Assembly: GCA_030646995.1 (NCBI GenBank)
Contig: JAUSKF010000005.1
Span: forward strand, 75,323-139,322
DNA length: 64,000 nucleotides
Reading direction: 5' to 3'
From: a bacterium
GTDB lineage: Bacteria; Patescibacteriota; Minisyncoccia; UBA6257; WO2-44-18
Positions 4,392 through 63,667 of the stretch are shown one piece after another. Every line of letters starts with the position of its first letter. Positions within the stretch are counted from its first letter, which is position 1. Made by a program: the position numbers and the translations under genes. Under the pieces are notes generated by a model. It did not search any database. It was not told the origin of the DNA and saw only the letters and a list, made by a program, of their open reading frames with translations.

Positions 4392-4446
4392 ATTTTCAGC
4401 CCCCTGCGTTTTGCGGGGGTTTTTCTTTTCAGTTAGAATAAAAGGA

Positions 4447-5586
4447 ATGAATGAAAATCTTTTAACTCGCGGGATAGAGGACGTAATCGTGAAGGAGCAT
4501 CTGGAGGAGGCTTTATCCGCCAGCCGGCGGACCGGTAAAAAGTTACGGATTAAGTTCGGCGCTGATCCGACCGCGCCCGACCTTCATTTGGGCCATGCCG
4601 TAGTTCTGCGAAAGCTGAAAGAGTTCCAAGATGCCGGGCATCAGATCGTTTTGATCATCGGGGATTACACCGCCAAGATTGGCGACCCGTCGGGCCGCTC
4701 CAAAACTCGCCCATCGCTAACCGACAAAGAGATTAAGGTAAATGCCAAGACTTATTTCAAGCAAGTTGGAAAGATTTTGAACTTGCGCAAAACGGAAGTC
4801 CAATACAACAGTAAGTGGTTCAAAAAAATGAGGTTTGCCGACGTGCTGGAGTTAATGGCAAAATTTACCACTCAACGAATTTTGGAGAGAGACGATTTCA
4901 CTAAACGCATCAAAGAGGGGGTAGAGGTCTATTCGCACGAACAAGTTTATCCGATGATGCAGGCCTATGATTCAATCATGGTGAAAGCCGATGTAGAAGT
5001 TGGCGGCACCGATCAGCGGTTTAATATGCTCGCAGGCCGCGATCTCCAGCGTCATATGGGTTTGCCCGAGCAGGATGTGATCACCTTTCCGCTTTTGGTT
5101 GGCACCGATGGAGAAAAGAAAATGTCCAAGTCCCTGGGTAACTATATCGGCATTACTGAAGCGCCGGATATGATGTTTGGCAAAGTGATGTCAATTCCCG
5201 ATAAGTTGCTGGAGCAGTATTACAAGCTTTGCACCAGCCAAGAGCGCACCCTACCCGACCCGCGCGAGGCAAAGCTTCGTTTGGCAAAGCTGATAGTGAC
5301 GCAATATCACAGCGAGAAAGAAGCAGAAAAGGCGGAACAGGAATTTATTCGGGTGGTTTCGCATGGCGAGGCGCCGGCGGATCGGCCTAAGCGCAAGGAC
5401 TTGGCGGGAAAATCAATTCTCGATGCGATTAGTGTAGTCAATATAGTTTCCAGCAGGAGCGAAGCTCGTCGCTTGATAGAGCAGGGAGGCGTGGAGATAA
5501 ATGGCAAAAAAGTCTCCGACCCTAATGGGATAGTCCCATCCGGAGCCACCGTAAAAGCAGGCAAGCGCCACTATTTCGATACTTGA
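4447..5586 (+). CDS. tyrS: tyrosyl-tRNA synthetase
   Basis: Class I HLGH motif (PDLHLGHAV), KMSKS motif and a C-terminal S4 domain. The start is moved to the MNENLL ATG, which has an RBS (aaaggaa). Confidence 0.92.
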   Translation: MNENLLTRGIEDVIVKEHLEEALSASRRTGKKLRIKFGADPTAPDLHLGHAVVLRKLKEFQDAGHQIVLIIGDYTAKIGDPSGRSKTRPSLTDKEIKVNAKTYFKQVGKILNLRKTEVQYNSKWFKKMRFADVLELMAKFTTQRILERDDFTKRIKEGVEVYSHEQVYPMMQAYDSIMVKADVEVGGTDQRFNMLAGRDLQRHMGLPEQDVITFPLLVGTDGEKKMSKSLGNYIGITEAPDMMFGKVMSIPDKLLEQYYKLCTSQERTLPDPREAKLRLAKLIVTQYHSEKEAEKAEQEFIRVVSHGEAPADRPKRKDLAGKSILDAISVVNIVSSRSEARRLIEQGGVEINGKKVSDPNGIVPSGATVKAGKRHYFDT

Positions 5587-9777: not shown

Positions 9778-11055
9778 ATGCGATATCGTAGCACCGAACG
9801 GCAGGCGCCGCTGGTGGATTTCCAAGAGGCGCTATTGCGCGGATTGGCTCCTGACGGTGGTTTGTATATGCCGGAGGAGATTCCAAGGAGAAAGATTTCT
9901 GATGGAAGTTTTCCGGAGATGGCCGCGGAAGTCCTGCGGGATTTTGTACCAACTGAAGGTCTGGTGGAGATTTGCCAAAGCGCCTTTTCTTTTCCGGTGC
10001 CCTTGCGTCATTTGAAAGATAATTTGTATCTGCTAGATCTCACGATGGGCCCGACGGCTTCCTTCAAAGATTTTGGAGCGCGTTTTATGGCGAGATCAAT
10101 GTCGCAGGCTTTGAAGCCTGGTCAGCTGTTGAATATTGTCGTTGCGACCTCCGGTGATACGGGAGGCGCGGTAGCGGCGGGGTTTGCCGGCGTTGCGGGA
10201 ATCAAGGTTTTTATCTTGTATCCCAGCAAGAGGGTGACTAATCTCCAAGAAAAGCAGATGACAACGCTTGGCGGGAATGTCTGCGCCCTGGAAGTGGACG
10301 GTGATTTCGATGATTGTCATCGAGTGGCAAAAGAAATTCTCAAAGACGAGATATTGCGTAAGGAAATTCCTATTTCTTCAGCGAACTCCATCAATATCGG
10401 TCGGCTTCTTCCTCAGATGACTTACTATTTCTGGGCGGAGGCAATGTTGCGGCTTGGCGGCGTGAAACGGAGGCCGATTTTCGTGGTGCCGAGTGGAAAT
10501 TTCGGCAACCTGACTGCCGGTTTGTTTGCCCGAGCGATGGGCCTGCCATCCGAATTGTTTGTGGCGGCGGTAAATCGTAACTGCGCGGTGCCGGAATATC
10601 TGGTGACCGGAAATATGTCTCCCAAGAAGACGGTACGGACTCTCTCGAATGCGATGGATGTCGGCAGGCCAGACAATTGGGATCGAATTATGGATCTTCA
10701 CGATTACGATCGGGGCCGAGTCGGCGCAGTCATGAGGACGGGCATGGTAGACGACCGGCAGGTAGAAAAGAAAATGGCCGAATTCTGCCAATACGAAAAT
10801 CGGGATATCGATCCGCATACTGCCGTTGGGCTGTGCGTTGCCTATGAGCTTTGCCACAACGAATACAGGAAGACTCCGGTGGTTGTACTTTCCACTGCTG
10901 ACGCCGGAAAATTCAAAGAAGTCTGGGAGAAGGCGACCGGTCGCCGCTTGGAACTCGCCTCAAGGCTGAAAGAAGTGCTTGCGAAAAAGAAAGAAAGCAT
11001 TCTGGTGTCGCCGAATAAAGAAGAAGTAGTGAAAATAATCAGATCCCGCCAATAG
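9778..11055 (+). CDS. thrC: threonine synthase
   Basis: ThrC N-terminal domain (GLAPDGGLYMPEEIP) and the PLP-lysine motif SFKDFG. Confidence 0.9.
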   Translation: MRYRSTERQAPLVDFQEALLRGLAPDGGLYMPEEIPRRKISDGSFPEMAAEVLRDFVPTEGLVEICQSAFSFPVPLRHLKDNLYLLDLTMGPTASFKDFGARFMARSMSQALKPGQLLNIVVATSGDTGGAVAAGFAGVAGIKVFILYPSKRVTNLQEKQMTTLGGNVCALEVDGDFDDCHRVAKEILKDEILRKEIPISSANSINIGRLLPQMTYYFWAEAMLRLGGVKRRPIFVVPSGNFGNLTAGLFARAMGLPSELFVAAVNRNCAVPEYLVTGNMSPKKTVRTLSNAMDVGRPDNWDRIMDLHDYDRGRVGAVMRTGMVDDRQVEKKMAEFCQYENRDIDPHTAVGLCVAYELCHNEYRKTPVVVLSTADAGKFKEVWEKATGRRLELASRLKEVLAKKKESILVSPNKEEVVKIIRSRQ

Positions 11056-16447: not shown

Positions 16448-16520
16448 GGGCCAGTAGCTTAGTGGCTAAAGCACCGAGCTTATACCTCGGCGAGCGATGG
16501 TTCGAGTCCATCCTGGCCCA
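16448..16520 (+). tRNA. tRNA-Ile (anticodon UAU)
   Basis: Cloverleaf: acceptor GGGCCAG/CTGGCCC, anticodon stem CCGAG/CTCGG, loop CTTATAC giving anticodon TAT, T-loop TTCGAGT. Confidence 0.78.
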
Positions 16521-16563
16521 CAAACATAAACCACCACTTTCATGTGGTGGTTTATGTTTGTGT
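16521..16563 (+). terminator. long hairpin terminator after tRNA-Ile
   Basis: 17-bp perfect stem CAAACATAAACCACCAC / GTGGTGGTTTATGTTTG with a 6-nt loop. Confidence 0.6.
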
Positions 16564-17941: not shown

Positions 17942-18001
17942 CTTCTTGACTTGCAGAGTTAAATGAACAAGCCCCGGGCTTTAGCCCGGGGATGCGACCT
18001 A

Positions 18002-18031
18002 TTGACAATAATAGGGCAAGTATGCTATATT
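18002..18031 (+). promoter_or_regulatory. sigma70-like promoter module A
   Basis: TTGACA at 18002-18007, an 18-nt spacer, then extended -10 TGcTATATT at 18023-18031. Nearly identical to the module at 18725. Confidence 0.55.
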
Positions 18032-18037
18032 ATTTAA

Positions 18038-18703
18038 ACGTTCATCGATAATTTTCGCGGATCGGATGGCGCCAATATGGCCTCCCCGAGCCCCGCGATA
18101 CTCCAGTGAGGAGATGCGCCCAATGCGACGCTTCATCACCCACACCGCCGTCTAAATTGTCCAGGAGCGCCGGCCTCGTACCCGCAATTGCATAACGCCG
18201 ATAGGGCTGTGTAGTTGCGGCCAGTACAAGACCACGTCCAACGGTTATGCCGCGGCACCGTGCCAGACTAAGTTCGCGGTTGGGCATTCAACCAAACCCA
18301 TGGAGGGTAGAGGGAGAAAATGGGTGGCCAAAGGTGGCCCGCCCGGCCACAGATTGGGTTGTAGCCCGTAAAGGCCTAACAACAAAAGGATCTCGAAAGA
18401 GATCCAGATGTTCGCCGTACCCACAGAGGACGACCAGCGACCCAGCGAAACTGCTAGCCCCGGCCGCATCCCCTCAAGGGACGCGCGGCGGACCACTAGC
18501 CAAACTCTAACCATCGGAGGTGCGACTATGGGTCGTTATCCGTACGGTGCAATAAAGCCCGGTTAGTTAATTGAGAAGCGCGGATTTGGACAGAATTCTT
18601 AACCCCCCGCCTATCGCTAGCCGGGCGAGCGCCCAGCGCAAAAAAGGACGCCCACTCCGAAAGTGGGCAACCGCCCCGAGCTTAGCTCGGGGCGTTCTAT
18701 TTT
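18038..18703 (+). ncRNA. candidate large structured ncRNA of unknown class
   Basis: About 660 nt, visibly GC-rich against a roughly 45% GC background, with only short ORFs on all six frames. Begins just after promoter A. Contains many hairpins, including GGATCTC-GAAA-GAGATCC at 18388-18405 and GTGGCC-cgcc-cGGCCAC at 18337-18354. Ends in tandem hairpins plus a T-tract at 18648-18703. Confidence 0.4.
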
Positions 18704-18724
18704 ACCAACCTATTTTCCCAGCCC

Positions 18725-18754
18725 TTGACAAAGTAGACCCATCTATGCTATCAT
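18725..18754 (+). promoter_or_regulatory. sigma70-like promoter module B
   Basis: TTGACA at 18725-18730, an 18-nt spacer, then TGcTATCAT at 18746-18754. The sequence downstream through AAACG is shared with module A. Confidence 0.55.
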
Positions 18755-18816
18755 TAAACGTAAGATTCGTTGGTAGTCCTTTAATCAAACAACCCCATTT
18801 TCCCAAGGAGAGAACC

Positions 18817-19017
18817 ATGCAGGGCGATCGATTCCGTGACGAGCTCAAGACTCGAAAGATTGCCAGCGCCGAAAGGGCGGCGATCAGCAGGAAGCGTTCT
18901 GGTAAGAGCCCCAACCGGGCTCTGCGGTTCGGCGATCTGGATCGCGAGCAGGTTCGTCAGGTTCGCGAACTGGCGGCTCCACGTGAAAGCTGGCTCGGGA
19001 TGAATCCCGAATACTAG
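18817..19017 (+). CDS. small basic protein (66 aa), hypothetical
   Basis: ATG preceded by the RBS aaggagag. Arg/Lys-rich ORF lying between promoter B and downstream hairpins. Could instead be non-coding. Confidence 0.3.
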   Translation: MQGDRFRDELKTRKIASAERAAISRKRSGKSPNRALRFGDLDREQVRQVRELAAPRESWLGMNPEY

Positions 19018-19211
19018 CCTACCTACGGTAGGCAGGCCGGGTGATCGGCTAACCCCAGCGTGGGCGTCCACAGGACGCCATCTCGAAAAAGGAGGAAAGT
19101 GTGCGCCTCATAACAAACCCCGTCGCTTTTGCCCTGGGGCGGTAGGGGGAACGGACAAAGGGTATTAAATCCAGACGCAAAGCCCCCGATAAAACGGGGG
19201 CTTTCTTATAG

Positions 19212-19254: not shown

Positions 19255-21432
19255 ATGTTGCGCCTAGAAACCGAACTCGCCAAGATTAATGGAATCGGGC
19301 AAAAGTTTATCGATAAGCTGGATAAGCTTAAGATAAAGACCGTCAAGGATCTTTTGTGGCATTTTCCGTTTCGCTATGATGATTTTTCGACCGTAGCTAA
19401 GATTGCTGATCTTAAAGTTAATCAATCTGCAACCGTCCGCGCAGTGGTTAAGAAGGTGTCCACTCGTCGTTCTTGGAAGAAGAAAATGGTAATCGTAGAG
19501 GCTCTAGTGGCCGACGAGACTGGCGGCATCAAAGCCATTTGGTTTAACCAGCCATTTATCGCAAAAGCATTAATGCCCGGCCGGCGGGTTAATTTTGCCG
19601 GTAAAGTTGCGATGTCTAATGATGAGATATTTCTACAAAGTCCGACTTACGAACTTTTCCAAAATACTACCGAGACTATGCATACCGCCGGTCTTATTCC
19701 GGTCTATCCCGAGACTCGGGGACTCACTTCAAAAGGCATCCGATTTTTGACTGGAGCGCTTTTGAAAAATTTGGAATCTATCCCTGATTTTTTGCCGGAA
19801 GAAGTTTTACTGCAGGCGGAAATGCCGAGTGTTGCTTCTGCGTTGAAAAATATCCATTTCCCCAAAAAAATTGAGCAGGCGGAAAAGGCCCGTGAGCGGT
19901 TTGCTTTTGCCGATATCTTTTTGATTCAATTGATGAATTTACGAAACCGGATGCTGCTTGCCAAAGAAAAAGCTCCGCCGCTGAATATAGATAAATCGGC
20001 TATTACTGATTTCATCGCCAGACTTCCTTTCGAGTTGACCGGCGCCCAGCATCGGAGCATAGATGAGATCGTCCATGATCTTGCGAAGCCCAATCCGATG
20101 AACCGTTTACTGCAGGGAGACGTCGGGTCGGGCAAAACCGTAGTCGCCGCAGTGGCCGCTTTGATGTCTGCGCAAAACGGAAAACAAACCGCTTTTATGG
20201 CGCCGACTGAAGTTTTAGCGCGCCAGCATTACAGAACTCTTTGCGCTATTTTTAAAAACTATCCGATTGGAATCGGAATTCTCACCGGCAGTGAGTCGAG
20301 GGCATTTTATGGCGAGGGGATGGAGAGCAAGCTGACTAGGCCGAAATTTCTGGAGGAAATAGCGCAGGACAAGATAAAAATAATTTTGGGAACCCACGCC
20401 CTGATTTCCGAAGTGAAGGGTAAGAAGTCCCTCATCTTTAATGACTTGGCTTTAGCAATCGTGGATGAGCAACACCGCTTCGGAGTGGACCAGCGCGCCT
20501 CTTTGGTGAAAAAAGAATCCGCCAGTCGGCGGACCGCCGGCTGGCGGACCGGCGAAACAACTACCGTCCATTTCCTTTCGATGAGCGCCACGCCGATACC
20601 CCGCACGCTTTCGCTGACATTATTCGGAGATTTGGATTTGTCGATTATTGATGAAATGCCCAAAGGCAGAAAAGAAATTGTTACTAAAGTTATACCGCCA
20701 TTAAACCGGAAGAAGGCTTATGATTTTATTCGCGGAGAGGTTAAAAAAGGCCGGCAGGCTTTTGTGATTTGCCCGAGAATTGAAGAGGCGGAAAAGCCGG
20801 AAGTGGCGAAGGTTGGTGACAAGAAAAAAATAAATCTTTGGGCGGACGTGAAAAATGTGACAGAAGAATATGAGAGATTATCAAAAACTATCTTCCCTGA
20901 CTTGAGAGTAGCGATGTTGCATGGCCGGATGAAGGGGGTAGAAAAGGCAGAAATAATGGCCGACTTCGCGGCCGGCCGCACCCATCTTTTGGTATCCACC
21001 TCCGTTATCGAAGTGGGAGTAGATGTGCCGAATGCTTCCATAATGATGATTGAGGGCGCGGATCGTTTCGGCTTGGCCCAGCTTTACCAATTCCGCGGCC
21101 GTGTCGGCAGGGGAGAGCATCAATCATATTGTTTGCTATTTACTGATTCTGAATCCGCCTCTACTGCGCAAAGGTTAGATGCCTTAATTAAAGCGAAAAA
21201 CGGTTTCGAGCTTGCCGAGCAGGACTTGGCTATTCGTGGCCCAGGAGAATTTATCGGCGATAAACAGACCGGCATTCCTGACTTGGCAATGCGTTCACTA
21301 AACAATATTGCGATAATTAAGCTCGCTCGCGCCTCCGCTGAAGTGTTGATAAAAAAAGACTACACCCTTTCCAATTATCCGCCCTTGAAGGCTGAGCTTG
21401 CCAAGTTTCAAAACAAAATTCACCTAGAATAA
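19255..21432 (+). CDS. recG: ATP-dependent DNA helicase RecG
   Basis: N-terminal wedge/OB region. Helicase motifs I (GDVGSGKT), II (DEQHRFG) and VI (QLYQFRGRVGRG). Carries an in-frame GC palindrome insertion at 20518-20554. Confidence 0.92.
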   Translation: MLRLETELAKINGIGQKFIDKLDKLKIKTVKDLLWHFPFRYDDFSTVAKIADLKVNQSATVRAVVKKVSTRRSWKKKMVIVEALVADETGGIKAIWFNQPFIAKALMPGRRVNFAGKVAMSNDEIFLQSPTYELFQNTTETMHTAGLIPVYPETRGLTSKGIRFLTGALLKNLESIPDFLPEEVLLQAEMPSVASALKNIHFPKKIEQAEKARERFAFADIFLIQLMNLRNRMLLAKEKAPPLNIDKSAITDFIARLPFELTGAQHRSIDEIVHDLAKPNPMNRLLQGDVGSGKTVVAAVAALMSAQNGKQTAFMAPTEVLARQHYRTLCAIFKNYPIGIGILTGSESRAFYGEGMESKLTRPKFLEEIAQDKIKIILGTHALISEVKGKKSLIFNDLALAIVDEQHRFGVDQRASLVKKESASRRTAGWRTGETTTVHFLSMSATPIPRTLSLTLFGDLDLSIIDEMPKGRKEIVTKVIPPLNRKKAYDFIRGEVKKGRQAFVICPRIEEAEKPEVAKVGDKKKINLWADVKNVTEEYERLSKTIFPDLRVAMLHGRMKGVEKAEIMADFAAGRTHLLVSTSVIEVGVDVPNASIMMIEGADRFGLAQLYQFRGRVGRGEHQSYCLLFTDSESASTAQRLDALIKAKNGFELAEQDLAIRGPGEFIGDKQTGIPDLAMRSLNNIAIIKLARASAEVLIKKDYTLSNYPPLKAELAKFQNKIHLE

Positions 21433-21840: not shown

Positions 21841-21919
21841 CCAAATATTGTAGCACTTTATTTACGCGTTATATTATAGTATTATAAGGCGAACAAAGTC
21901 GCCGCATGGCGGCACTTAT

Positions 21920-21957
21920 GGCCTCATCGTCTAATGGCTAGGACAGCCCCCTTTTCC
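21920..21957 (+). pseudogene. tRNA-Glu 5'-half duplicate (pseudo-tRNA fragment)
   Basis: GGCCTCATCGTCTAATGGCTAGGACAGCCCCCTTTTCC matches about 33 of 38 positions of the 5' half of the intact tRNA-Glu at 22236. No T-arm or 3' acceptor follows. Confidence 0.5.
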
Positions 21958-21995
21958 GCCGGAGGCGGATCCTCCTTCGGAGGACACGGCACATA

Positions 21996-22230
21996 TATGT
22001 ATTATCTTTACATTCTGGAAAGTTTAGAATATAAAAGGCATTACATAGGCACGAGCGCCGATGTTAAAAACAGGCTCTCTGAGCATAACAGCGGTGAAGT
22101 GCGGTCAACTAAGGCTTATCGTCCATGGAGGTGCGTATATTCAGAAGAATTCTTGGATAAAACATCGGCGCGCAAGCGAGAGTTGTTCTTGAAAAGAAAC
22201 GCCAAGGCAAGAGAAGATTTGTTCAAGTAA
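21996..22230 (+). CDS. GIY-YIG nuclease family protein (YhbQ/UPF0213-like)
   Basis: YYLYILESLEYKRHYIGTSADVKNRLSEHNSG...PWRCVYSEEF...KRELFLKRN is the GIY-YIG (URI) domain signature. The start is set at the internal ATG because the upstream part of the ORF runs through the tRNA fragment. Confidence 0.78.
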
Positions 22231-22235
22231 AATAT

Positions 22236-22310
22236 GGTCTCGTCGTCTAGTGGCTAGGACATGCCCCTTTCACGGGCAGAACACGGGTTCGATTCCCGTC
22301 GAGACTACCA
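22236..22310 (+). tRNA. tRNA-Glu (anticodon UUC), CCA encoded
   Basis: Cloverleaf: acceptor GGTCTCG/CGAGACT, anticodon loop CTTTCAC, T-loop TTCGATT, 3' ACCA. The tsaD ATG follows immediately. Confidence 0.9.
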
Positions 22311-23432
22311 ATGAAAATTTTAGCGATAGAAACATCTTGTGATGAGACTGCGATGGCCTTGGTGGATTGCAAGGGCAACCCACTATTGAAAAACCGCTCC
22401 GCCGGCTGGCGGATTAAAGTTTTGGAAAATATTGTTTCTTCGCAGATTGCTATTCATCGCCCATTCGGCGGCGTAGTTCCGAATTTGGCAAAGCGCGAGC
22501 ATATAAAAAATCTCCCAAAAATTTACCAGTCGCTAGTCGCTAGTCACAAGTCGCTAAAGTTTGACCTAATCGCAGTTACCGTTGGTCCGGGTCTGGAGCC
22601 GGCTTTGTGGGCGGGAATTGAATTTGCGAAAAGTTTAGCGAAAGAAACCGGCAAGCCGTTGGTTGGCGGAAATCATATGGAGGGACATCTTTTTTCTAAT
22701 TGGCTGCCGCATAGCGTCATTGCGAGTGCGGCGAAGCAATCTAACAAAAATTTAAGTAAGATTGCCACGACCCCTTCGTGGTCTCGCAATGACAAGATTA
22801 AATTCCCGGCAATCGCGCTCGTGGTCAGTGGCGGACACACGATGGTCATCAAAATGGATTCTTTAAAGAAATGGAAAAATCTTGGCGAGACTCGCGATGA
22901 TGCTGCCGGTGAAGCTTTCGATAAAGTTGCGCGCTTGCTTGGCCTTCAGTATCCGGGCGGACCGGAAGTTGAGAGGCTGGCGAAAAATGGAAATCCGAAA
23001 GCGGTAAATTTTCCGAGGCCGATGTTGAATCCGCCAGCTGGCGGAAAAAATTATGAATTTAGCTTTTCCGGATTGAAGACTTCAGTTCTATATTATTTGC
23101 GAGATCATCCATTTGTCGTCAGCCGTCAGTCATTAGTTGCCGATGTCGCTGCAAGCTTCCAGCAAGCCGTTATCGATACACTGGTTGGAAAAACTATGCG
23201 CGCCGCGGAAGAGTTTGGCGCGCAATCAGTTTTGCTTTCCGGCGGGGTGGCGGCGAATAAGAGATTAAGAGAAATTATGAAATTAGAAACTGAGAAATTG
23301 GGGCGGGAATTTTTTGTGCCGGATTTTCAATACAATACCGATAACGCGGTGATGATTGCCGCCGCCGCCTACATTGCCAAATTGCGCGGGAAAAAATATC
23401 CGATGCGCGCCAACTCGAACCTTAGCTTGTAA
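22311..23432 (+). CDS. tsaD: tRNA N6-adenosine threonylcarbamoyltransferase TsaD/Kae1
   Basis: MKILAIETSCDETA N-terminus and the HMEGH metal-binding motif. Carries in-frame repeat insertions. Confidence 0.9.
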   Translation: MKILAIETSCDETAMALVDCKGNPLLKNRSAGWRIKVLENIVSSQIAIHRPFGGVVPNLAKREHIKNLPKIYQSLVASHKSLKFDLIAVTVGPGLEPALWAGIEFAKSLAKETGKPLVGGNHMEGHLFSNWLPHSVIASAAKQSNKNLSKIATTPSWSRNDKIKFPAIALVVSGGHTMVIKMDSLKKWKNLGETRDDAAGEAFDKVARLLGLQYPGGPEVERLAKNGNPKAVNFPRPMLNPPAGGKNYEFSFSGLKTSVLYYLRDHPFVVSRQSLVADVAASFQQAVIDTLVGKTMRAAEEFGAQSVLLSGGVAANKRLREIMKLETEKLGREFFVPDFQYNTDNAVMIAAAAYIAKLRGKKYPMRANSNLSL

Positions 23433-24219: not shown

Positions 24220-26355
24220 ATGATTCCAATGTCTGAAGAGCTGCCAAAGGCCTACGACCCGAAAGCCACCGAAGACCGCATTTATAAAATGTGGGAGGAC
24301 GGCGGGTATTTTAAGCCAGCGACTAGCGACTCGCGACTAGCGACTGGGAAAACTTACGCCATCCATTTGCCACCGCCGAACGTGACGGGTTCTTTGCATA
24401 TGGGTCACGCACTCAACGCGACCATCTCCGACATTTTAATTCGCTATCATCGGATGCGTGGCTATGAAACAGTTTGGTTTCCGGGCACCGATCACGCCGG
24501 TATCGCTACGCAAAGCGTGGTTGAAAAGAATTTAAAAAAAGAAGGCATTAGCCGCTGGGATTTGGGTCGCGAAAAGTTTATTGAAAAAGTTTGGGAGTGG
24601 AGAAAACAATATGGAGATATTATTATCAGTCAGTTAAAAAAACTCGGCGCTTCCGCGGACTGGTCGCGGACCCGTTTCACGATGGACCTCGAATATGCCG
24701 GCTGGGTAAAAAAAGTTTTTATTCATTATTTCGAAAAAGATTTAATTTATCGCGGCAAGCGAGTGGTTAGTTGGTGTACCGCTTGTCAGACTTCTTTGTC
24801 GGATTTGGAAATTGAATATAAAGAAGAGAAAACAAAATTGTGGCAAATTAAGTACCCACTGACTGACGACAAAGGACAAACGACTAGCGACTTCATAATC
24901 GTTGCGACGACTCGGCCGGAAACGATGCTGGGCGATTCGGCGGTTGCCGTGAACCCGAAAGATAAGCGTTATGAAAATTTAGTTGGCAAAAAAGTTTTGT
25001 TGCCGATCCAGAATCGCGAGATTCCGATTGTCGCGGACGAAAAAATTGATATGGCTTTCGGGACGGGCGCGGTGAAGATCACGCCGGCGCATGATCTGCT
25101 GGATGCTGAAATAGGGGAGCGACATAAGCTGCCTTTTGTTCCGGTAATCAACGGAATAGGGAAAATGACCGCCGAGGCCGGAAAAGATTTTGAAGGACTG
25201 AAGATCGCTGAGGCGCGCGAGAGGGTGGTGGCGGAGTTGGAAAAACTTGGCCTGATAGCTAAGACCGAGGACTACACTCATAACTTAGCAATTTGTTACC
25301 GGAGCGCCACACCCATTGAACCGCTTTTAAGCGACCAGTGGTTTTTGAAGATGAAAGATCTTGCCGCGACGGCATTGGAAACCGTGCAGTCAGGGAAAAC
25401 CAAAATTATTCCGGAGAATTTTTCTAAGCCTTATATTTCTTGGCTGGAGAATATAAAAGATTGGTGTATCTCCCGGCAAATTTGGTGGGGGCATCAGCTT
25501 CCGGTTTATTTTTGCAAAACTGATCCATTGAAGTTTGTCGTTTCGGAAGAAAAGCCTGCAAAATGCTCGGAATGTGGAAATTGCGAGATGGAGCAATCTC
25601 AAGACGTTTTGGATACCTGGTTTTCTTCCGCGCTTTGGCCATTCGCCGGGCTTTCCGAGGAAGATCAAAAGAAATTTTATCCTTCGAGTGTTTTAATCAC
25701 CGCCCGCGATATTATCAATCTTTGGGTCGGGCGGATGATCTTTTCGGGAATGGAATTTATGGGTGAGACTCCTTTCCCGGATGTTTTGATCCACGGCACA
25801 ATTCTCACCAAAGATGGCAAGCGTATGTCTAAAAGCCTAGGAACCGGCATTGACCCAATCGGTTTGATAGATAAGTACGGCGCCGACGCGACCCGGTTTG
25901 GCATAATTTGGCAGGCGATGGGCAATCAGGACATTCACTGGGACGAAACCGCCCTAGCTGGCGGCAAGAAGTTTGCTAACAAGCTATGGAATATCGCCCG
26001 GTATATTCATGGCGTAGGTATTGTTCCGAGAAATTTAGATGTTCAACGCGTTGAACATGTTGAAGACAAGGAAATTTTGGAAAAACTGGAAATTTTGAAG
26101 AAAGAAGTGGAAAAGGGGACCCAGGAGTATGATTTCGGACAAACTCTGCACAAGATTTACGACTTCGTCTGGCACGATTTAGCTGATAAATACATAGAAA
26201 CCTCAAAAGATCGCACCGATGAAAATGTTAAACTGATATTAAGCGGCCTCCTGATGGACGTTTTGAAGATATTGCACCCGTTTATGCCGTTCATCACCGA
26301 AGAGCTCTATCAAAAGCTCTTTGCTAAGGATTCCGCCCTGATTGCCGCGGAATAA
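24220..26355 (+). CDS. valS: valyl-tRNA synthetase (short form)
   Basis: HMGHALN (HIGH), the CP1 editing domain and KMSKS. Lacks the long C-terminal coiled-coil. Contains an in-frame (TAGCGAC)n insertion. Confidence 0.92.
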   Translation: MIPMSEELPKAYDPKATEDRIYKMWEDGGYFKPATSDSRLATGKTYAIHLPPPNVTGSLHMGHALNATISDILIRYHRMRGYETVWFPGTDHAGIATQSVVEKNLKKEGISRWDLGREKFIEKVWEWRKQYGDIIISQLKKLGASADWSRTRFTMDLEYAGWVKKVFIHYFEKDLIYRGKRVVSWCTACQTSLSDLEIEYKEEKTKLWQIKYPLTDDKGQTTSDFIIVATTRPETMLGDSAVAVNPKDKRYENLVGKKVLLPIQNREIPIVADEKIDMAFGTGAVKITPAHDLLDAEIGERHKLPFVPVINGIGKMTAEAGKDFEGLKIAEARERVVAELEKLGLIAKTEDYTHNLAICYRSATPIEPLLSDQWFLKMKDLAATALETVQSGKTKIIPENFSKPYISWLENIKDWCISRQIWWGHQLPVYFCKTDPLKFVVSEEKPAKCSECGNCEMEQSQDVLDTWFSSALWPFAGLSEEDQKKFYPSSVLITARDIINLWVGRMIFSGMEFMGETPFPDVLIHGTILTKDGKRMSKSLGTGIDPIGLIDKYGADATRFGIIWQAMGNQDIHWDETALAGGKKFANKLWNIARYIHGVGIVPRNLDVQRVEHVEDKEILEKLEILKKEVEKGTQEYDFGQTLHKIYDFVWHDLADKYIETSKDRTDENVKLILSGLLMDVLKILHPFMPFITEELYQKLFAKDSALIAAE

Positions 26356-33170: not shown

Positions 33171-34685
33171 ATGCCGACACCAAAAGCAAAAACAGGAAAT
33201 GATCTGATGGATAAGCTTCTTAGCTTGTGCAAAAGGAGAGGTTTTATTTTTCCGGGCTCGGAAATTTACGGCGGCTTAGCTAACTCTTGGGACTACGGCC
33301 CGCTTGGCGCTGAATTAAAAAAGAATATTAAAGACGAATGGTGGAATCGCTTTGTCCGCCAGCGTACCGATGTAGTTGGAATTGATGCCGCTTTGATGAT
33401 GAACCCGAAGGTTTGGGAGGCGAGTGGCCACGTGGCCGGTTTTTCCGATCCGTTGGTGGAGTGCAAAAAATGCCATGAGCGTTTCCGCGCTGACGCTCTC
33501 GAAATTTCGAAATCCGATGTCAAAATGTCGAAATCTCCTGTCGAAATGTCGAAATCTGATGTCAAAATGTCGAAATCTCCTGTCGAAATCTCGAAATCTC
33601 GAAATGTCATTCCCTGCCCGTCTTGTGGTGGTGAGCTGATGGAGGCCAAGCAATTTAACCTTATGTTCAAAACGAACATCGGCCCGACCGAAGAAAAGGG
33701 AAGTGCGGTTTATCTCCGCCCGGAAACGGCGCAGGCGATGTTTGTGGATTTTAAAAATGTATTAGACACCACGCGTAAGCGTCTGCCGTTCGGTATCGCC
33801 CAGATGGGCAAGGCTTTCCGAAATGAAATTACTCCCGGCAATTTTATTTTTCGCACCCGTGAATTTGAGCAGATGGAAATTGAATATTTCGTAAAAGAAT
33901 CCGAATGGGAAAAGCATTTTGAGAATTGGTTAGGCGAAATGAAGGCCTGGCTGGAACACTTGGGAGTTTCCGAAAAAAATCTGCACTATGCCGAGATTCC
34001 CGACGGGGAGCGCGCTCATTATTCCAAGCGCACCGTGGATATTGAATATGAATATCCTTTTGGTCGCAAAGAGCTTTACGGTTTGGCTTACCGCGGGAAC
34101 TTTGATCTTACCCAGCATGAGAAATTCAGCGGACAGGATTTGCGCTACACCGACCCGAATCCGCCGGCTGGCGGACCGAAGGAGAAGTTCTTGCCGCACG
34201 TCATTGAGCCGACCTGGGGCGTGGATCGTTCGGTTTTGGTGGCGATGCTAGAGGCGTACCATGAAGAAAAAGTAGAAAGTTCCGCCAAAGGCGGATCCGC
34301 CTCCGGCGGAAAAAGTGAAAAGTTAAAAGTGAAAAGTGAGGGAGAGGAAGGGGAGGACATTCGGGTAGTGATGCGTTTTCCGAAGTGGCTGGCTCCGGTG
34401 AAAGTAGCGATTTTGCCGCTTTCCAAAAAAGAAGAATTGGCGAAAGTTGCCAAACCCCTCTATGAAGAATTAGCCAAAAAGTTTGTCTGCGAATACGACG
34501 AAACCCAGAGCATCGGCAAGCGTTATCGCCGCCAAGACGAGATCGGCACGCCTTATTGCGTGACGGTGGATTTTGATTCGCTCGAGGACAAAGCCGTTAC
34601 TGTCCGCGACCGCGACACGATGGAGCAGGACAGGATCAAAATTTCCGAGCTTGTGGATTACTTAGGAAAAAGTTTAGAGAAATAA
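33171..34685 (+). CDS. glyQS: glycyl-tRNA synthetase (dimeric, class II)
   Basis: RRGFIFPGSEIYGGLANSWDYGPLGAELKKNIKDEWW is the GlyRS N-terminal signature. Has class II motifs and a C-terminal anticodon-binding domain. Contains a 2x14-aa tandem repeat insertion. Confidence 0.88.
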   Translation: MPTPKAKTGNDLMDKLLSLCKRRGFIFPGSEIYGGLANSWDYGPLGAELKKNIKDEWWNRFVRQRTDVVGIDAALMMNPKVWEASGHVAGFSDPLVECKKCHERFRADALEISKSDVKMSKSPVEMSKSDVKMSKSPVEISKSRNVIPCPSCGGELMEAKQFNLMFKTNIGPTEEKGSAVYLRPETAQAMFVDFKNVLDTTRKRLPFGIAQMGKAFRNEITPGNFIFRTREFEQMEIEYFVKESEWEKHFENWLGEMKAWLEHLGVSEKNLHYAEIPDGERAHYSKRTVDIEYEYPFGRKELYGLAYRGNFDLTQHEKFSGQDLRYTDPNPPAGGPKEKFLPHVIEPTWGVDRSVLVAMLEAYHEEKVESSAKGGSASGGKSEKLKVKSEGEEGEDIRVVMRFPKWLAPVKVAILPLSKKEELAKVAKPLYEELAKKFVCEYDETQSIGKRYRRQDEIGTPYCVTVDFDSLEDKAVTVRDRDTMEQDRIKISELVDYLGKSLEK

Positions 34686-36292: not shown

Positions 36293-36688
36293 CCTCGCTT
36301 TTAGTACCCTCGGGCAATTACTTCTCGGAAACGGCATAATTTGCTTCCAGCGAGCAAATTTGCCTCTCCCTCGCTCCGCCACTCTGAAGAGACCAAGCTG
36401 GCGGAGCTCCGGCATGTTCCTTAAAGTAATTTGCCCTACGACCAAAAGCGACACTACGATCTTTTCTCCGAAACCCGAGCGAGCTTAATCGGCTAGGAGG
36501 TTTTTGTATAATATATCTTTAACAAAAACCCGATTAGCGCGAGTGCCAAGTGGAGTTCGCCGCAGGAGCGAACGAAGCGGGTTGAGGGAAGAGATTGGGG
36601 TGGAGTCCTTTGCCAAAACTTGGAAAGTTTAGTATTATATTGCATAATATAAATGTGCTTCGTTACGTTATAAATTACGTAGCGCAGA

Positions 36689-50180: not shown

Positions 50181-50193
50181 AACCCGCCAATTG

Positions 50194-50276
50194 TGCTCGG
50201 GACAGGAGTTGAACCTGCACGCCCTTGCGGGCACAAGCACCTCAAGCTTGCGTGTCTGCCGTTTCACCACCCGAGC
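50194..50276 (-). tRNA. tRNA-Leu (anticodon GAG)
   Basis: Type II tRNA: acceptor GCTCGGG/CCCGAGC, anticodon loop TTGAGGT, long variable arm (TGCCCGCAAGGGCG), T-loop TTCAACT. Confidence 0.85.
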
Positions 50277-50280
50277 TTAT

Positions 50281-50943
50281 TTAAATGATATTCTTCTTGC
50301 CTATTATAGCGAGTACGGCCCTAATTTTCAAATATTTTCTTCTAAGACTCGTGGCGTGGTTTTTATAATATATCTTTGGCAACAATTTTAAAGATTCCGC
50401 TTTCGCATATTTTAGCTGATAGCACACACCCTTTTGGCCACGTCCGGTTACGTGGCCTTTGATATTCAATAATTCGTAAATTCGCTCACGCAGCCAGTTA
50501 ATGTGTTTTTTGCTTGCCGATACAAACTCGGTATAAAACATAAAACTGGACCTCCATCGGGGATCCCAGTAGGAATAGAATGTTCCGTCGCCATCAAAAT
50601 GTCCGCGTAAAAAATCAAAAAAGTATTGATTTGGTATTTCTAATGCGCTCATTACCTTCGACTTGTTCGCCATTAGTCCAATTTTTAATAAAAATCTATA
50701 GAAATTCACGTCACCAAACTGGATACGAAATGCCTTTTTACCAGTTTGCCCGGACGTTTTTTGTCCGATTTTATTTTTAATTCCTAGGCACCCCTTAAAA
50801 TTCTCTAGTTGTTCCTTGTCCTTGGAAGTTAGATCAAAGTGCCGGCTATCGGATGATAAATTGCCATCGGTGGTTAAAAGCCCGATTGCGTAGGCAAAGT
50901 TGGGCGACCATTCAAGTTTTATTTTGTTTTTCGGTAAGGCCAT
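50281..50943 (-). CDS. LAGLIDADG-family homing endonuclease (double-motif)
   Basis: Two LAGLIDADG blocks, AYAIGLLTTDGNLS and FLRGHFDGDGTF, at the typical spacing. Free-standing, with its stop 4 nt from tRNA-Leu(GAG). Confidence 0.82.
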   Translation of the reverse strand: MALPKNKIKLEWSPNFAYAIGLLTTDGNLSSDSRHFDLTSKDKEQLENFKGCLGIKNKIGQKTSGQTGKKAFRIQFGDVNFYRFLLKIGLMANKSKVMSALEIPNQYFFDFLRGHFDGDGTFYSYWDPRWRSSFMFYTEFVSASKKHINWLRERIYELLNIKGHVTGRGQKGVCYQLKYAKAESLKLLPKIYYKNHATSLRRKYLKIRAVLAIIGKKNII

Positions 50944-61149: not shown

Positions 61150-62829
61150 GTGCCAAGTGTCAAAGATTTTATAAATAAGGATAGATATGGCCTAGTTAGC
61201 CGAGCTTATGGGTTTTCTAAGTTTGCCCATTCGGGCCAGAAAAGAAAAAATGGCGAACCGTATTTTTCTCACTGTCTGGCGGCCGCGGAGTCTATCGCCG
61301 AGTGGGGATTGGATGAGGCGACGGTTGCCGCTGCTTTGTTGCACGACGTAGTGGAAGACACCAATCATTCTCTGGATGAACTTAAGGAAAAATTTGGAGA
61401 AGAGGTGGCGTTTTTGGTGGACGGCGTCACGAAGATAGGCAAAGTGCGGTATCGGGGCATTGAGGCGAAGGTGGAAAATTTGCGGAAATTTATTTTATAT
61501 TTAAGCCAAGACATACGCGTGATTTTGGTGAAGTTGGCGGACCGACTGCATAATATGAAAACTTTGTACGCCGTTCACGCTTTGAAGCAGAAACGGATTG
61601 CGCTCGAAACAATGGAGATTTACGCCCCACTCGCATACCGGCTGGGAATGCAGAGATTAAGCGGCGAGTTGGAAGATTTGGCTTTTCCTTATCTCTATCC
61701 GCAGGAATATAAATGGCTCATAGAAAATGTGAAAGAGCGCTTCGAAGAGCGGGAGCGTTATTCGCAACGCGTAAAGCCGGTTATTGAATCGGAGCTGAAG
61801 AAAAATAATGTCGGTACGATTTTAGTGGATTCGCGGGCGAAGCGATATACGAGTTTGTATAAAAAACTTCTTCGCTACGATATGAACGTGGAAAGCATCT
61901 ATGACTTGGTGGCGATGCGTATCATCGTAAAAAGTTTGGAGGATTGCTACGCGGCGCTCGGAGTAGTTCATAAGATGTGGCCACCAGTCCCGCATCGATT
62001 TAAGGACTACATTGCCCTTCCGAAAGGTAATGGTTATCGTAGTTTACACACCACAGTTTTCGGACCGGAAAATAAAATCACCGAGATTCAAATAAAAACC
62101 GAACAGATGCACGCTGAGGCCGAGAACGGTATCGCGGCGCACTTTGCATACCAGCAAACAAAGAGCACTAAGGCTTACTTGGAAAGAAATGCTTCCGTGG
62201 CCGATAAAAAAGAGCTTTCTTGGATTAAGCAGTTGCGTAGCTGGCAGCAGGACTTCACCAATCCGGAGGAGTTCGTGCAGTCTTTGAAAATTGATTTTTT
62301 CCAAGACAGAATTTTAACTCTCACTCCGAAAGGGGAGGTGATTGATTTACCGGTAGGCGCCACTCCGATTGATTTTGCTTACCAAATTCACACGGAAGTC
62401 GGCAATCATTGCGCCGGCGCGAAAGTGAATGGGAAGATTGCCGTTTTGGATCACAAATTAAAATCAGGCGATATCGTGGAAATTATTATTCAAAAAAATA
62501 AGCGCCCATCGGAATCTTGGTTAGAGTTCGCGCACACCGGCTCAGCGCGTAATCATATCCGGGCCGGTTTGCGGCACAATGTCGGCAATCTGGATAAAAA
62601 AGAACCGCAGGCCACCGAATTAAAATTGACCGTTAAAGACCGGGAGGGTTTACTTGGCGACATTTCTGAAATGATTACCCGTTCGCATGTCCGCATTCAG
62701 TCGGTCAATGCAAAAATGCCGGTCGTGAAAATAAGCTGTGAGGTAATGACGAAAGATAAAGCCGAGAAATTGTTGGAGAAGATTAAAAAACTGAAGGAGG
62801 TGAAGGCGGCAGACTTTCGTCTAATTTAG
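61150..62829 (+). CDS. bifunctional (p)ppGpp synthetase/hydrolase RelA/SpoT homolog (compact)
   Basis: HD hydrolase domain (HDVVEDT), a synthetase domain and TGS and ACT domains. GTG start. Confidence 0.88.
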   Translation: MPSVKDFINKDRYGLVSRAYGFSKFAHSGQKRKNGEPYFSHCLAAAESIAEWGLDEATVAAALLHDVVEDTNHSLDELKEKFGEEVAFLVDGVTKIGKVRYRGIEAKVENLRKFILYLSQDIRVILVKLADRLHNMKTLYAVHALKQKRIALETMEIYAPLAYRLGMQRLSGELEDLAFPYLYPQEYKWLIENVKERFEERERYSQRVKPVIESELKKNNVGTILVDSRAKRYTSLYKKLLRYDMNVESIYDLVAMRIIVKSLEDCYAALGVVHKMWPPVPHRFKDYIALPKGNGYRSLHTTVFGPENKITEIQIKTEQMHAEAENGIAAHFAYQQTKSTKAYLERNASVADKKELSWIKQLRSWQQDFTNPEEFVQSLKIDFFQDRILTLTPKGEVIDLPVGATPIDFAYQIHTEVGNHCAGAKVNGKIAVLDHKLKSGDIVEIIIQKNKRPSESWLEFAHTGSARNHIRAGLRHNVGNLDKKEPQATELKLTVKDREGLLGDISEMITRSHVRIQSVNAKMPVVKISCEVMTKDKAEKLLEKIKKLKEVKAADFRLI

Positions 62830-63667
62830 GAGCGTTGGTTAGCCGAGCCACAATTCCGTGCAGTTCCTCGGGTGAGTAAAAAGTAATAATTAATTTTCCG
62901 GTTTCTCCGGAGCGATCAACTTTTACAGGGGTGCCTAGTGCGGACTCCAATTCTCTTTGTAGTGTTTCAGTTTCGGGATCTATAGAAAGGGGAGCGGGAA
63001 GTATCCCGTCCATCGTCGGTGATTCCACGCGCTTGATTCTTTGAATGCGAGATTTTAATTCGCGTACACTCAAATTACTGCGCAATAAATCTTCCATCAG
63101 CATTTGTTGTTGCCCTGGATCATCTACGGTCAGCAATAATCTGCCCTGGCTTTCGCTTATCTGATTTCTGGAAATAGCATCTTGAACTGCAGTCGGCAGG
63201 CCGAGTAGGCGCATAGTGTTAGCAATTACTTCTCGGCTTTTTCCAATGCGGGCGGCGATTTCACGCTGGGTCATCGCGAACTCATCTTGCAATCGGGAAT
63301 AGGCGCGGGCAGATTCAATCGGATTTAAATCGGCGCGTTGCACGTTTTCCAAAACCGCCAGCTCTAAGCGTTCCTTCTCTAGGGTGACGCTGCGGATGAT
63401 GGCGGGGATTCTTTCCAAACCGAGCATGCGTGAGGCTTGCCATCTTCGCTCGCCGGCGATGAGTTGATAGGCTACCTCCGTGCCGAGCTCGCTCTCCGTT
63501 TCAACTTTCGTGACGGTAATCGGCTGGAGAATGCCGAACTCGCGAATGGAATTTGCGAGGTTTTTTAATTCTTCAGGATCAAAATTTCTCCGCGGCTGCT
63601 GCGGGTTAGGGGAGATTTTGTCTACCTCTATAAGAAAGACCGGTCCTTGAATCGGGGGATTGTCCAT
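62783..63667 (-). CDS. parB: chromosome partitioning protein ParB/Spo0J
   Basis: ParB box (GERRWQASRMLG) and a downstream HTH region. Confidence 0.9.
   Translation of the reverse strand: MDNPPIQGPVFLIEVDKISPNPQQPRRNFDPEELKNLANSIREFGILQPITVTKVETESELGTEVAYQLIAGERRWQASRMLGLERIPAIIRSVTLEKERLELAVLENVQRADLNPIESARAYSRLQDEFAMTQREIAARIGKSREVIANTMRLLGLPTAVQDAISRNQISESQGRLLLTVDDPGQQQMLMEDLLRSNLSVRELKSRIQRIKRVESPTMDGILPAPLSIDPETETLQRELESALGTPVKVDRSGETGKLIITFYSPEELHGIVARLTNAPKLDESLPPSPPSVF

Follow-up and report, generated by a model that had tools for sequence, protein, structure and literature searches.

Why should one short GC-rich palindrome recur, in frame and translated, inside essential genes of an otherwise unremarkable bacterial chromosome segment? 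The question is raised by a 64,000-nucleotide stretch of Patescibacteria DNA (GenBank assembly GCA_030646995.1, contig JAUSKF010000005.1, positions 75,323 to 139,322; hereafter the window), in which a first-pass annotation had reported a palindrome repeated within essential genes, with coordinates, sequences, peptides and reading frames that we could all reproduce. The host proteins were identified by Pfam and solved-structure searches as TyrRS, RecG, TsaD and GlyRS. The relatives of the window's TsaD, GlyRS and RecG are from Parcubacteria/Patescibacteria, and the window is an ordinary Parcubacteria chromosome segment. We consider it probable that the copies belong to a very short GC-rich palindromic DNA repeat family that has multiplied in Patescibacteria and has been added in frame to essential genes.

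Copies were counted with the hairpin pattern TCCGCC-N3-4-GGCGGA, using dinucleotide shuffles of the window as the null. The window contains eight exact hairpins plus one unit that begins with ACCGCC, relative to 0.01 in the shuffles, and the pattern CCGCCRGCYGGCGG is present exactly at 4517, 20534, 22399, 23031 and 34161 and with one mismatch at 20519 (0.00 in the shuffles). A scan of all GC-rich hairpins in the window revealed no recurrent stem other than TCCGCC/GGCGGA, which has units at 4516-4531, 20518-20533 and 20534-20548, 21955-21969 (then TCCTCCttcGGAGGA), 22398-22413, 23030-23045, 34160-34175, 34281-34295 and 34296-34310. Two forms are apparent, a single form of 16 nt with a 4-nt loop (AGCT, or GGCT/AGCC) and a doublet of 30-31 nt made of two 15-nt units. 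The conserved unit is the 16-nt TCCGCC-RGCY-GGCGGA, usually with AA just 5', and not the 22-bp palindrome proposed earlier, as its symmetric gaa...ttc form occurs in no copy. Coding copies are found in tyrS and recG, at two sites of tsaD, and in glyS both as a single and as a doublet, and a further doublet belongs to the leader of a small GIY-YIG gene. Eight of the nine TCCGCC-type hairpin units are coding; the tyrS copy (4516-4531), the glyS doublet (34281-34310) and the doublet at 21955-21984 had been overlooked. All window copies lie within its first 34 kb, and by a rough estimate their clustering in few genes is apparently not significant when doublets are taken as single events.

Not every similar sequence belongs to the family. 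The family copies are internal to open reading frames (ORFs) without T-runs and so carry no intrinsic-terminator signature, and the CCGCC hairpins at 11046 and 60008, which are terminator-like and unrelated to the family, were excluded. A supposed partial copy in valS (25949-25964) is not an insertion but native sequence, since the gene has the same length as its orthologue in L123 (compared DNA loci are labelled L and compared protein relatives P, each with a number). A second supposed partial copy in the 36.3-kb region is a CTCCGCC-19 nt-GGCGGAG pair with only weak resemblance to the repeat. This pair is enclosed by a long-range inverted repeat, GGGCAATTACTT ... AAGTAATTTGCCC, in a long intergenic region (36293-36688) that follows an M16 peptidase gene and that matched no RNA family.

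The family also exceeds chance expectation beyond the window. In 277 kb of Parcubacteria DNA retrieved solely through homology to TsaD, and thus sampled independently of the motif, we found 35 hairpins in 19 of 80 loci where 0.015 are expected from base composition, a density of about 0.13 per kb. Copy number is thus well above chance both in the window and in motif-independent DNA, contrary to the refuting result that the first-pass annotation had named. A motif scan with AATCCGCCRGCYGGCGGA, using one genome per species, returned at least 120 loci; among the matches listed, 65 are named Patescibacteria of many classes and 26 are Bacteroidota or Balneolaceae, and 20 further hairpins occur in 804 kb around these seed hits. 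Within the same listed matches, 41 of the 65 copies in named Patescibacteria loci (63%) fall in ORFs of at least 150 aa, as do only 2 of 27 Bacteroidota copies. Viral contigs yielded only 16 motif matches, so the motif is apparently not enriched in phage DNA. When 85 TsaD genes are aligned, members of the family are found at 10 positions, each filled in 1-4 genes, and all three frames are used, giving the peptides SASWRI, NPPAGG and IRQPAD from single copies and SAKGGSASGGK or SPPKADPPPEE from doublets.

We then compared each host gene with its orthologues. The recG gene (19255-21432, plus strand) carries a 31-nt doublet, TCCGCCagtcGGCGG-A-CCGCCggctGGCGGA, at 20518-20548 (followed by CCGGC; the whole region 20518-20554 reads gaaTCCGCCAGTCGGCGGACCGCCGGCTGGCGGACCGGC) that encodes SASRRTAGWRT between helicase motif II (DEQH) and motif III (SAT) and that can also form a single hairpin of 14 bp (-18.2 kcal/mol, z -5). 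The closest relative, L140, with 89% amino acid identity, has the empty allele GAA AAA AAG TCC GGA GAG, whereas the window has GAA, 30 nt of palindrome and ACCGGC at the same point, a net gain of 24 nt. The RecG of L142 (83%) has the doublet with an altered loop and intact stems. L142 also reads AAT CCG CCA GCT GGC GGA at a second recG site where both the window and L140 have ATA AAT CTT.

The tsaD gene (22311-23432, plus strand) is occupied twice. At site 1 the single palindrome TCCGCCggctGGCGGA (22398-22413, followed by TT) encodes SAGWRI within NPLLKNRSAGWRI where most orthologues have GGLK.P.F, with a net gain of 18 nt relative to L121, and in the AlphaFold model it is located in the turn between strands E12-21 and E34-44. 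At site 2 the perfect 16-nt palindrome TCCGCCAGCTGGCGGA (23030-23045, AA on its 5' side) encodes NPPAGG, so that the window reads MLNPPAGGKNY relative to ML(R/K)DKNY in the closest relatives, a net gain of 12 nt; removing CCAGCTGGCGGA leaves a sequence only 2 bases different from the empty allele of L172. Both inserts lie outside the predicted helices and strands of the model (mean pLDDT 84), and the closest TsaD relatives, P0002, P0005 and P0006 (74-75% identity by BLASTP), are without them. The same gene contains a second, longer in-frame palindromic insert of 78 nt (22716-22793; 26 codons, VIASAAKQSNKNLSKIATTPSWSRND). The insert is bounded by the 11-bp inverted repeats GTCATTGCGAG/CTCGCAATGAC, has further hairpins inside and folds at -20 kcal/mol (z -3.9); its loop (residues 136-159) is modelled with pLDDT <50, and other orthologues have related or different inserts there.

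In glyS (33171-34685, plus strand) the single palindrome TCCGCCggctGGCGGA at 34160-34175, with AA 5' and CCG following, encodes NPPAGGP, giving DPNPPAGGPKE relative to DPENPKE in most relatives and a net gain of 12 nt; the empty alleles are GAA AAT CCG AAG (L224) and GAA AAT CCC AAA (L223). The two closest GlyRS relatives differ at this site, with the insert present in P0122 (88%) and absent from P0123 (82%). A 30-nt doublet, TCCGCCaaaGGCGGA + TCCGCCtccGGCGGA, at 34281-34310 encodes SAKGGSASGG (fold -13 kcal/mol, z -4.4); it is missing from the 88% identical P0122, and like doublets occur elsewhere in TsaD orthologues. Upstream in glyS is a tandem repeat (33499-33608, period 42, 2.4 copies, 94% matches) that encodes SKSDVKMSKSPVEM repeats in a variable insertion region where P0122 has a single SKSPVEISKS unit. 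Finally, the tyrS copy, TCCGCCagccGGCGGA at 4516-4531 on the plus strand (followed by CCG), encodes SASRRT in ORF 4411-5586 (Pfam tRNA-synt_1b) and corresponds to a gap of +4 aa in a comparison with distant solved TyrRS structures only. Aligning the affected proteins with orthologues thus gives presence/absence differences in recG, tsaD and glyS, and all of the coding copies fall in alignment gaps relative to solved structures (RecG, TsaD twice, GlyRS and TyrRS), in agreement with the surface-loop-like positions that had been suggested for them.

At the junctions, there is no sequence conservation beyond the 16-mer in 123 copies; AA is directly 5' (or TT 3') in 15 of 17 Parcubacteria copies that were not selected by the seed. 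Of the copies within ORFs, 40 have their AA side 5' on the coding strand, as compared to 12 in the opposite orientation. All four empty alleles compared for this feature have AATC at the insertion point (AAT CAG at tsaD site 2, AAT CCG at glyS, AAT CCG at tsaD site 1 and AAT CTT at recG site 2). TCCGGA was considered as a general target and rejected, as it is present only in the recG empty allele and absent from those of tsaD and glyS. No target duplication was observed at any junction compared, and a model of target-site duplication with a fixed insertion length was also discarded, as best-fit deletions give ambiguous junctions and net gains ranging from 9 to 24 nt. The net gains relative to empty orthologues are +9, +12, +12, +12, +18 and +24 nt. 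Thus the earlier claim that coding copies are multiples of three is correct for net length gains and incorrect for the core, which is 16 nt. Gains in multiples of three from a 16-nt core fit translated copies from which frame-breaking events have been lost.

Is it the DNA or the peptide that is conserved? All three frames are used among 54 coding copies, with 33 encoding xPPAGG, 11 SAxxR and 10 xRQLAD. Third codon positions within NPPAGG at tsaD site 2 are identical in 16 of 18 pairs compared, whereas outside the insert, where the amino acid is the same, they are identical in 287 of 612 (47%). The use of all three frames together with these fixed third positions indicates that the DNA is the unit and not the peptide. 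Carriers at this site are scattered (6 of 120 orthologues, requiring 6 Fitch steps on a distance tree), and decayed copies such as HQPAGG, NPPVGG and SGNWRI are present. Frame use, fixed codons, scattered carriers and decay together point to repeated addition or to continued homogenisation at the nucleotide level, with a peptide that is not ancestral. This also favors insertion over ancestral sequence, the alternative that the first-pass annotation had named, as the closest RecG and TsaD orthologues lack the peptides and GlyRS relatives differ. The repeat therefore acts at the DNA level and is translated. It is highly improbable that the Gly/Pro-rich loop peptides are native, convergent or selected as protein, with the palindrome a by-product of codon choice. 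Even though xPPAGG is the commonest frame and Gly/Pro loops are plausible linkers, the same DNA read in other frames gives the unrelated SASWRI and IRQLAD, occurs in non-coding DNA and tRNA fragments and has codons fixed inside the element, and the closest orthologues are without the peptides except at the glyS site. An assembly or sequencing artefact deserves almost no credence, given that the inserts occur at the same codons in independent NCBI, ENA, JGI and Logan assemblies with diverged flanks and intact frames.

The non-coding copy in the window has a different setting, which may bear on where the hairpins come from. Sequence comparison shows that positions 21916-21996 (plus strand) are a partial tRNA-Glu copy (tRNA positions ~1-43) with the 30-nt doublet TCCGCCggaGGCGGA + TCCTCCttcGGAGGA (21955-21984) in its anticodon loop, between positions 35 and 36. 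It is followed on the same strand by a small GIY-YIG nuclease gene (21997-22230; UPF0213/YhbQ-like, 77 aa; Pfam PF01541, E 2.8e-15), the product of which has the UPF0213 proteins 1zg2 and 1ywl as closest solved structures, and by an intact tRNA-Glu(TTC) (22236-22310) that ends the cassette. The same layout with tRNA-Glu is present in L143, L148, L155, L173 and L191, with tRNA-Ser and a 30-nt doublet in L118, and with tRNA-Leu and a different 20-nt palindrome, CCTGCCTGCCGGCAGGCAGG, in L058. Overall, eight of nine GIY-YIG ORFs in the fetched DNA are directly preceded by a partial tRNA whose anticodon loop holds a GC-rich hairpin doublet or palindrome. In these partial copies, which are under no frame constraint, the insertion measures exactly 30 nt or 20 nt, and nothing is duplicated or lost. 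In L143 and L155, positions 1-35 of the partial copy are identical to those of the resident tRNA. We rejected the idea that the GIY-YIG gene and hairpins form a group I intron in tRNA-Glu, because the upstream acceptor strand does not pair with the 3' end of the downstream tRNA, which is itself complete. More tRNA-Glu fragments follow the intact tRNA-Glu in L155 (736-900) and L173 (786-900); these are 3' parts with the same 30-nt doublet at 35/36, and L155 also has a T-arm fragment interrupted by the single copy TCCGCCAACCGGCGGA.

The 3' arm of the doublet, GGAGGA in the window, is 12 nt before the ATG of the GIY-YIG gene, and across relatives the 3' arm of the second stem (GGAGGA or GAAGGA) is 11-14 nt before the ATG, so that this arm may hide the ribosome-binding site of the gene. 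In eight tRNA-Glu copies both stems are fully paired and three pairs have changed on both sides, a score that 0 of 500 shuffles reach.

As read from these sequences, the hairpin family is linked to tRNA-gene-associated nuclease cassettes, with the nuclease as a candidate spreader. One explanation, which we regard as unlikely, is that the hairpins belong to, or are by-products of, UPF0213 GIY-YIG cassettes lodged in tRNA genes. Breaks in anticodon-loop DNA, or off-target breaks in A-rich coding loops, would be repaired by short-homology copying of a hairpin that already exists elsewhere, and the solitary genic hairpins would be either scars left by repair or miniature forms derived from the end of the cassette. 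The relation of UPF0213 proteins to the structure-specific nuclease Slx1 counts for this origin, as do the hairpins upstream of eight of nine GIY-YIG ORFs, the TCCGCC/GGCGGA stem common to cassettes and gene copies, the extra tRNA-Glu fragments with a doublet or single copy in L155 and L173, and gene copies that show variable small target losses and AATC microhomology in place of clean cut-and-paste. However, a GIY-YIG gene is present within the 8 kb fetched at only 2 of 120 motif-seeded loci (among the matches listed), so there is no local linkage of the hairpins to such genes. The activity and specificity of the GIY-YIG protein are moreover putative, and the hairpin may be a mere translational control, as the Shine-Dalgarno-like GGAGGA at 11-14 nt before the ATG and the covarying stems would allow. 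The motif also occurs in tRNA-like arrays of Bacteroidota, and in one of these loci, L030, no GIY-YIG gene was detected. It is quite unlikely that the hairpins, at 16-30 nt, are non-autonomous partners of an undescribed mobile system driven by these tRNA-lodged nucleases. In such a system the nuclease would cut at or near hairpins or anticodon-loop structures and repair would copy the hairpin to new sites, seeding tRNA fragments and loops of essential proteins throughout Patescibacteria; if true, this would be a new mode of spreading, by a unit well below the size of all known transposable elements.

In the Bacteroidota loci L030 (1425-1735, Longitalea luteola) and L036 (3640-3746, a Bacteroidales metagenome-assembled genome), tandem units, of ~122 bp in L030, have a tRNA-like 5' part with AATCCGCCAGCCGGCGGATT in place of the anticodon arm and a truncated T-arm, for which ARAGORN makes no call. 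The L030 array is upstream of a true tRNA-Gly(GCC).

The covarying stems also raise the issue of whether the motif is a functional DNA or RNA signal, such as an uptake tag (these bacteria being competent and DNA-scavenging), a chromosome-organisation site, a site related to methylation or restriction, or an mRNA hairpin, with coding loops simply being able to accommodate a palindrome in a genome with little non-coding DNA. The same 16-18-mer is kept across very distant Patescibacteria lineages and other phyla, with conserved stems and variable loops in addition to the covariation in the tRNA context, and DprA is encoded in the window, as is a protein with a weak PilO-like match below threshold; the confinement of the copies to the first 34 kb would also fit. 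We nevertheless hold this explanation to be decidedly unlikely. Close relatives differ at the same site and decayed copies persist, and the density of ~0.13 per kb is below that of known DNA uptake sequences, which are characterized by preferential uptake of the DNA that bears them, by one motif per lineage and by a frequency of about one per kb. We identified no candidate for a protein that binds the motif. A parS site was considered and rejected, as the motif is unlike the parS consensus, even though ParB is encoded at 62783-63667. Furthermore, the arms of a palindrome can stay alike through template-switch correction in the absence of any function.

We thus return to a repeat family that multiplies at the DNA level. 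Copies would be added at many sites, protein-coding genes included, and in essential genes the survivors would be frame-keeping copies in surface loops, where they would be translated as 4-10 residues (NPPAGG, SA(S/G)(W/R)R or IRQLAD depending on frame, or SAKGGSASGG for doublets). Addition may proceed by a process that acts on single-stranded hairpins or that is guided by short homology; it would prefer sites that already read AATC(C/A)G and would leave no target duplication. We found no sign in the host proteins that the inserted residues serve them, and we infer that the copies are neutral or selfish passengers. Several observations weigh against this explanation. Covariation of the stems indicates that some copies are under structural constraint, so that 'purely selfish' may be too simple a description. 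No transposase and no match of the PF01797 type, which would indicate a REP-associated tyrosine transposase (RAYT; REP, repetitive extragenic palindrome), is present among the 59 ORFs of the window, and no mobilising enzyme was found there. All pairs of empty and filled alleles have at most 89% protein identity, which leaves the exact inserted bases ambiguous, and no recent event with identical flanks was seen. Copies that recur at precisely one codon across scattered lineages could also be explained by numerous losses or by recombination instead of repeated gain. Within the host genome, the data are those of the 64 kb window.

How does this family compare with repeats that are already described? 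The first-pass annotation had likened it to Rickettsia palindromic elements (RPEs), a likeness that holds for behavior and not for family membership. As with RPEs, palindromes are found in frame in essential genes of a reduced genome, are translated, take surface positions and differ between orthologues. RPEs are ~100-150 bp with family-specific consensus sequences and are restricted to Rickettsia, whereas the unit described here is 16 nt (30-31 nt in doublets), about ten times shorter, Patescibacteria-wide, unrelated in sequence and built on a core that is not a multiple of three. To our knowledge, it is the smallest intragenic palindromic repeat. In the open-access literature we found no description of this sequence, of its peptides or of REP/RAYT in Patescibacteria, and a prior description is possible.

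The GC clusters and 'byp' elements of yeast mitochondria are ~30-60 nt in length, with GC clusters reportedly being flanked by short target duplications and byps being skipped by the ribosome. They resemble the present family in being GC-rich palindromes that multiply in an AT-richer genome, partly inside coding regions, and differ in being mitochondrial, as well as in the target duplication that is not seen here. Net gains that are multiples of three argue that the inserts described here are translated and not skipped like byps. The yeast mitochondrial elements are regarded as mobile (PMC4478555).

REPs and their paired form, REPINs, which are associated with RAYT (IS200/IS605-like), share with this family short imperfect palindromes (of 20-40 bp in REPs) that frequently form doublets, a high copy number and no target duplication. 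They act through single-stranded hairpins with a strand bias, of which the orientation bias and fixed AATC neighbor seen here are reminiscent. REPs are extragenic and have a GTAG or CGTC head (PMC3733652). RAYT genes, which encode Y1 HUH transposases, typically have REPs on their flanks. In contrast to REPs, the copies described here start with (AA)TCCGCC and end with GGCGGA, have neither head and, among the matches listed for named Patescibacteria, are mostly (63%) inside ORFs. Highly iterated palindrome 1 (HIP1) of cyanobacteria is similarly a short GC-rich palindrome that is frequent within genes and is kept as DNA sequence. It has only 8 bp and is created by substitutions that leave protein length unchanged, whereas coding copies here add 9-24 nt (3-8 codons) relative to empty orthologues. 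Miniature inverted-repeat transposable elements are characterized by terminal inverted repeats, target-site duplication and a length greater than ~50 bp; here there is no target duplication at any junction, the tRNA pieces are clean at 30 nt and 20 nt, and the unit is too short. Regarding the nuclease, SegB, a GIY-YIG homing endonuclease of phage T4, is described as acting on tRNA loci (PMC13096335). The cassettes resemble free-standing GIY-YIG homing genes in having a GIY-YIG gene beside tRNA genes with partial tRNA duplication, and differ from SegB-type genes in that the protein is a 77-aa UPF0213-type domain without a DNA-binding extension. For the placement of a hairpin doublet within the anticodon loop of such a tRNA fragment, we know of no described counterpart.

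If this explanation is correct, proteins of the ultra-small bacteria of the candidate phyla radiation (CPR), among them tRNA synthetases, RecG and TsaD, have repeatedly grown longer through a process acting on DNA rather than through protein-level selection. This has consequences for the interpretation of the many insertions in CPR proteins that lack an explanation, as well as for sequence alignment, phylogenetics and structure prediction across a large part of the tree of life. The peptides NPPAGG, SASWRI, IRQLAD and SAKGGSASGG can serve as tags for recognizing and masking inserts of this kind. A unit ~ten times shorter than RPEs would lower the known size limit for intragenic repeat families, and the anticodon-loop hairpin beside a GIY-YIG nuclease gene offers a concrete lead to mechanism.

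Further GC-rich palindrome families occur in frame in Parcubacteria proteins, including CCTGCCTGCCGGCAGGCAGG (LPAGRQG), TLRQAQG(R/S)xLRF, GGACGTCnGACGTCC (RTSDV) and TGGGCCtcgGGCCCA. They were seen in TsaD, RecG and GlyRS orthologues (P0026, P0043-P0060, P0003 and P0009; L146, L150 and L202-L204), and several of them occupy the loop of tsaD site 1.

Elsewhere in the window, Rfam at the gathering threshold identified tRNAs only. A stretch at 17969-19204 is dense in strong GC-rich hairpins (stems of up to 11 bp) with G+C raised to 0.51; its ORFs (18042-18287, 18245-18514 and 18571-19017) have no Pfam match, and no Rfam match at the gathering threshold. On the minus strand at 50193-50943, between rplS and tRNA-Leu(GAG), there is a 220-aa ORF that weakly matches LAGLIDADG_3 (E 1.2e-5). 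It resembles a free-standing gene of the homing-endonuclease type beside a tRNA, with no partial tRNA or family hairpin upstream. Finally, ARAGORN calls a tRNA-Ile with anticodon TAT at 16448-16521, which is unusual in that most bacteria decode AUA with a modified CAT tRNA.

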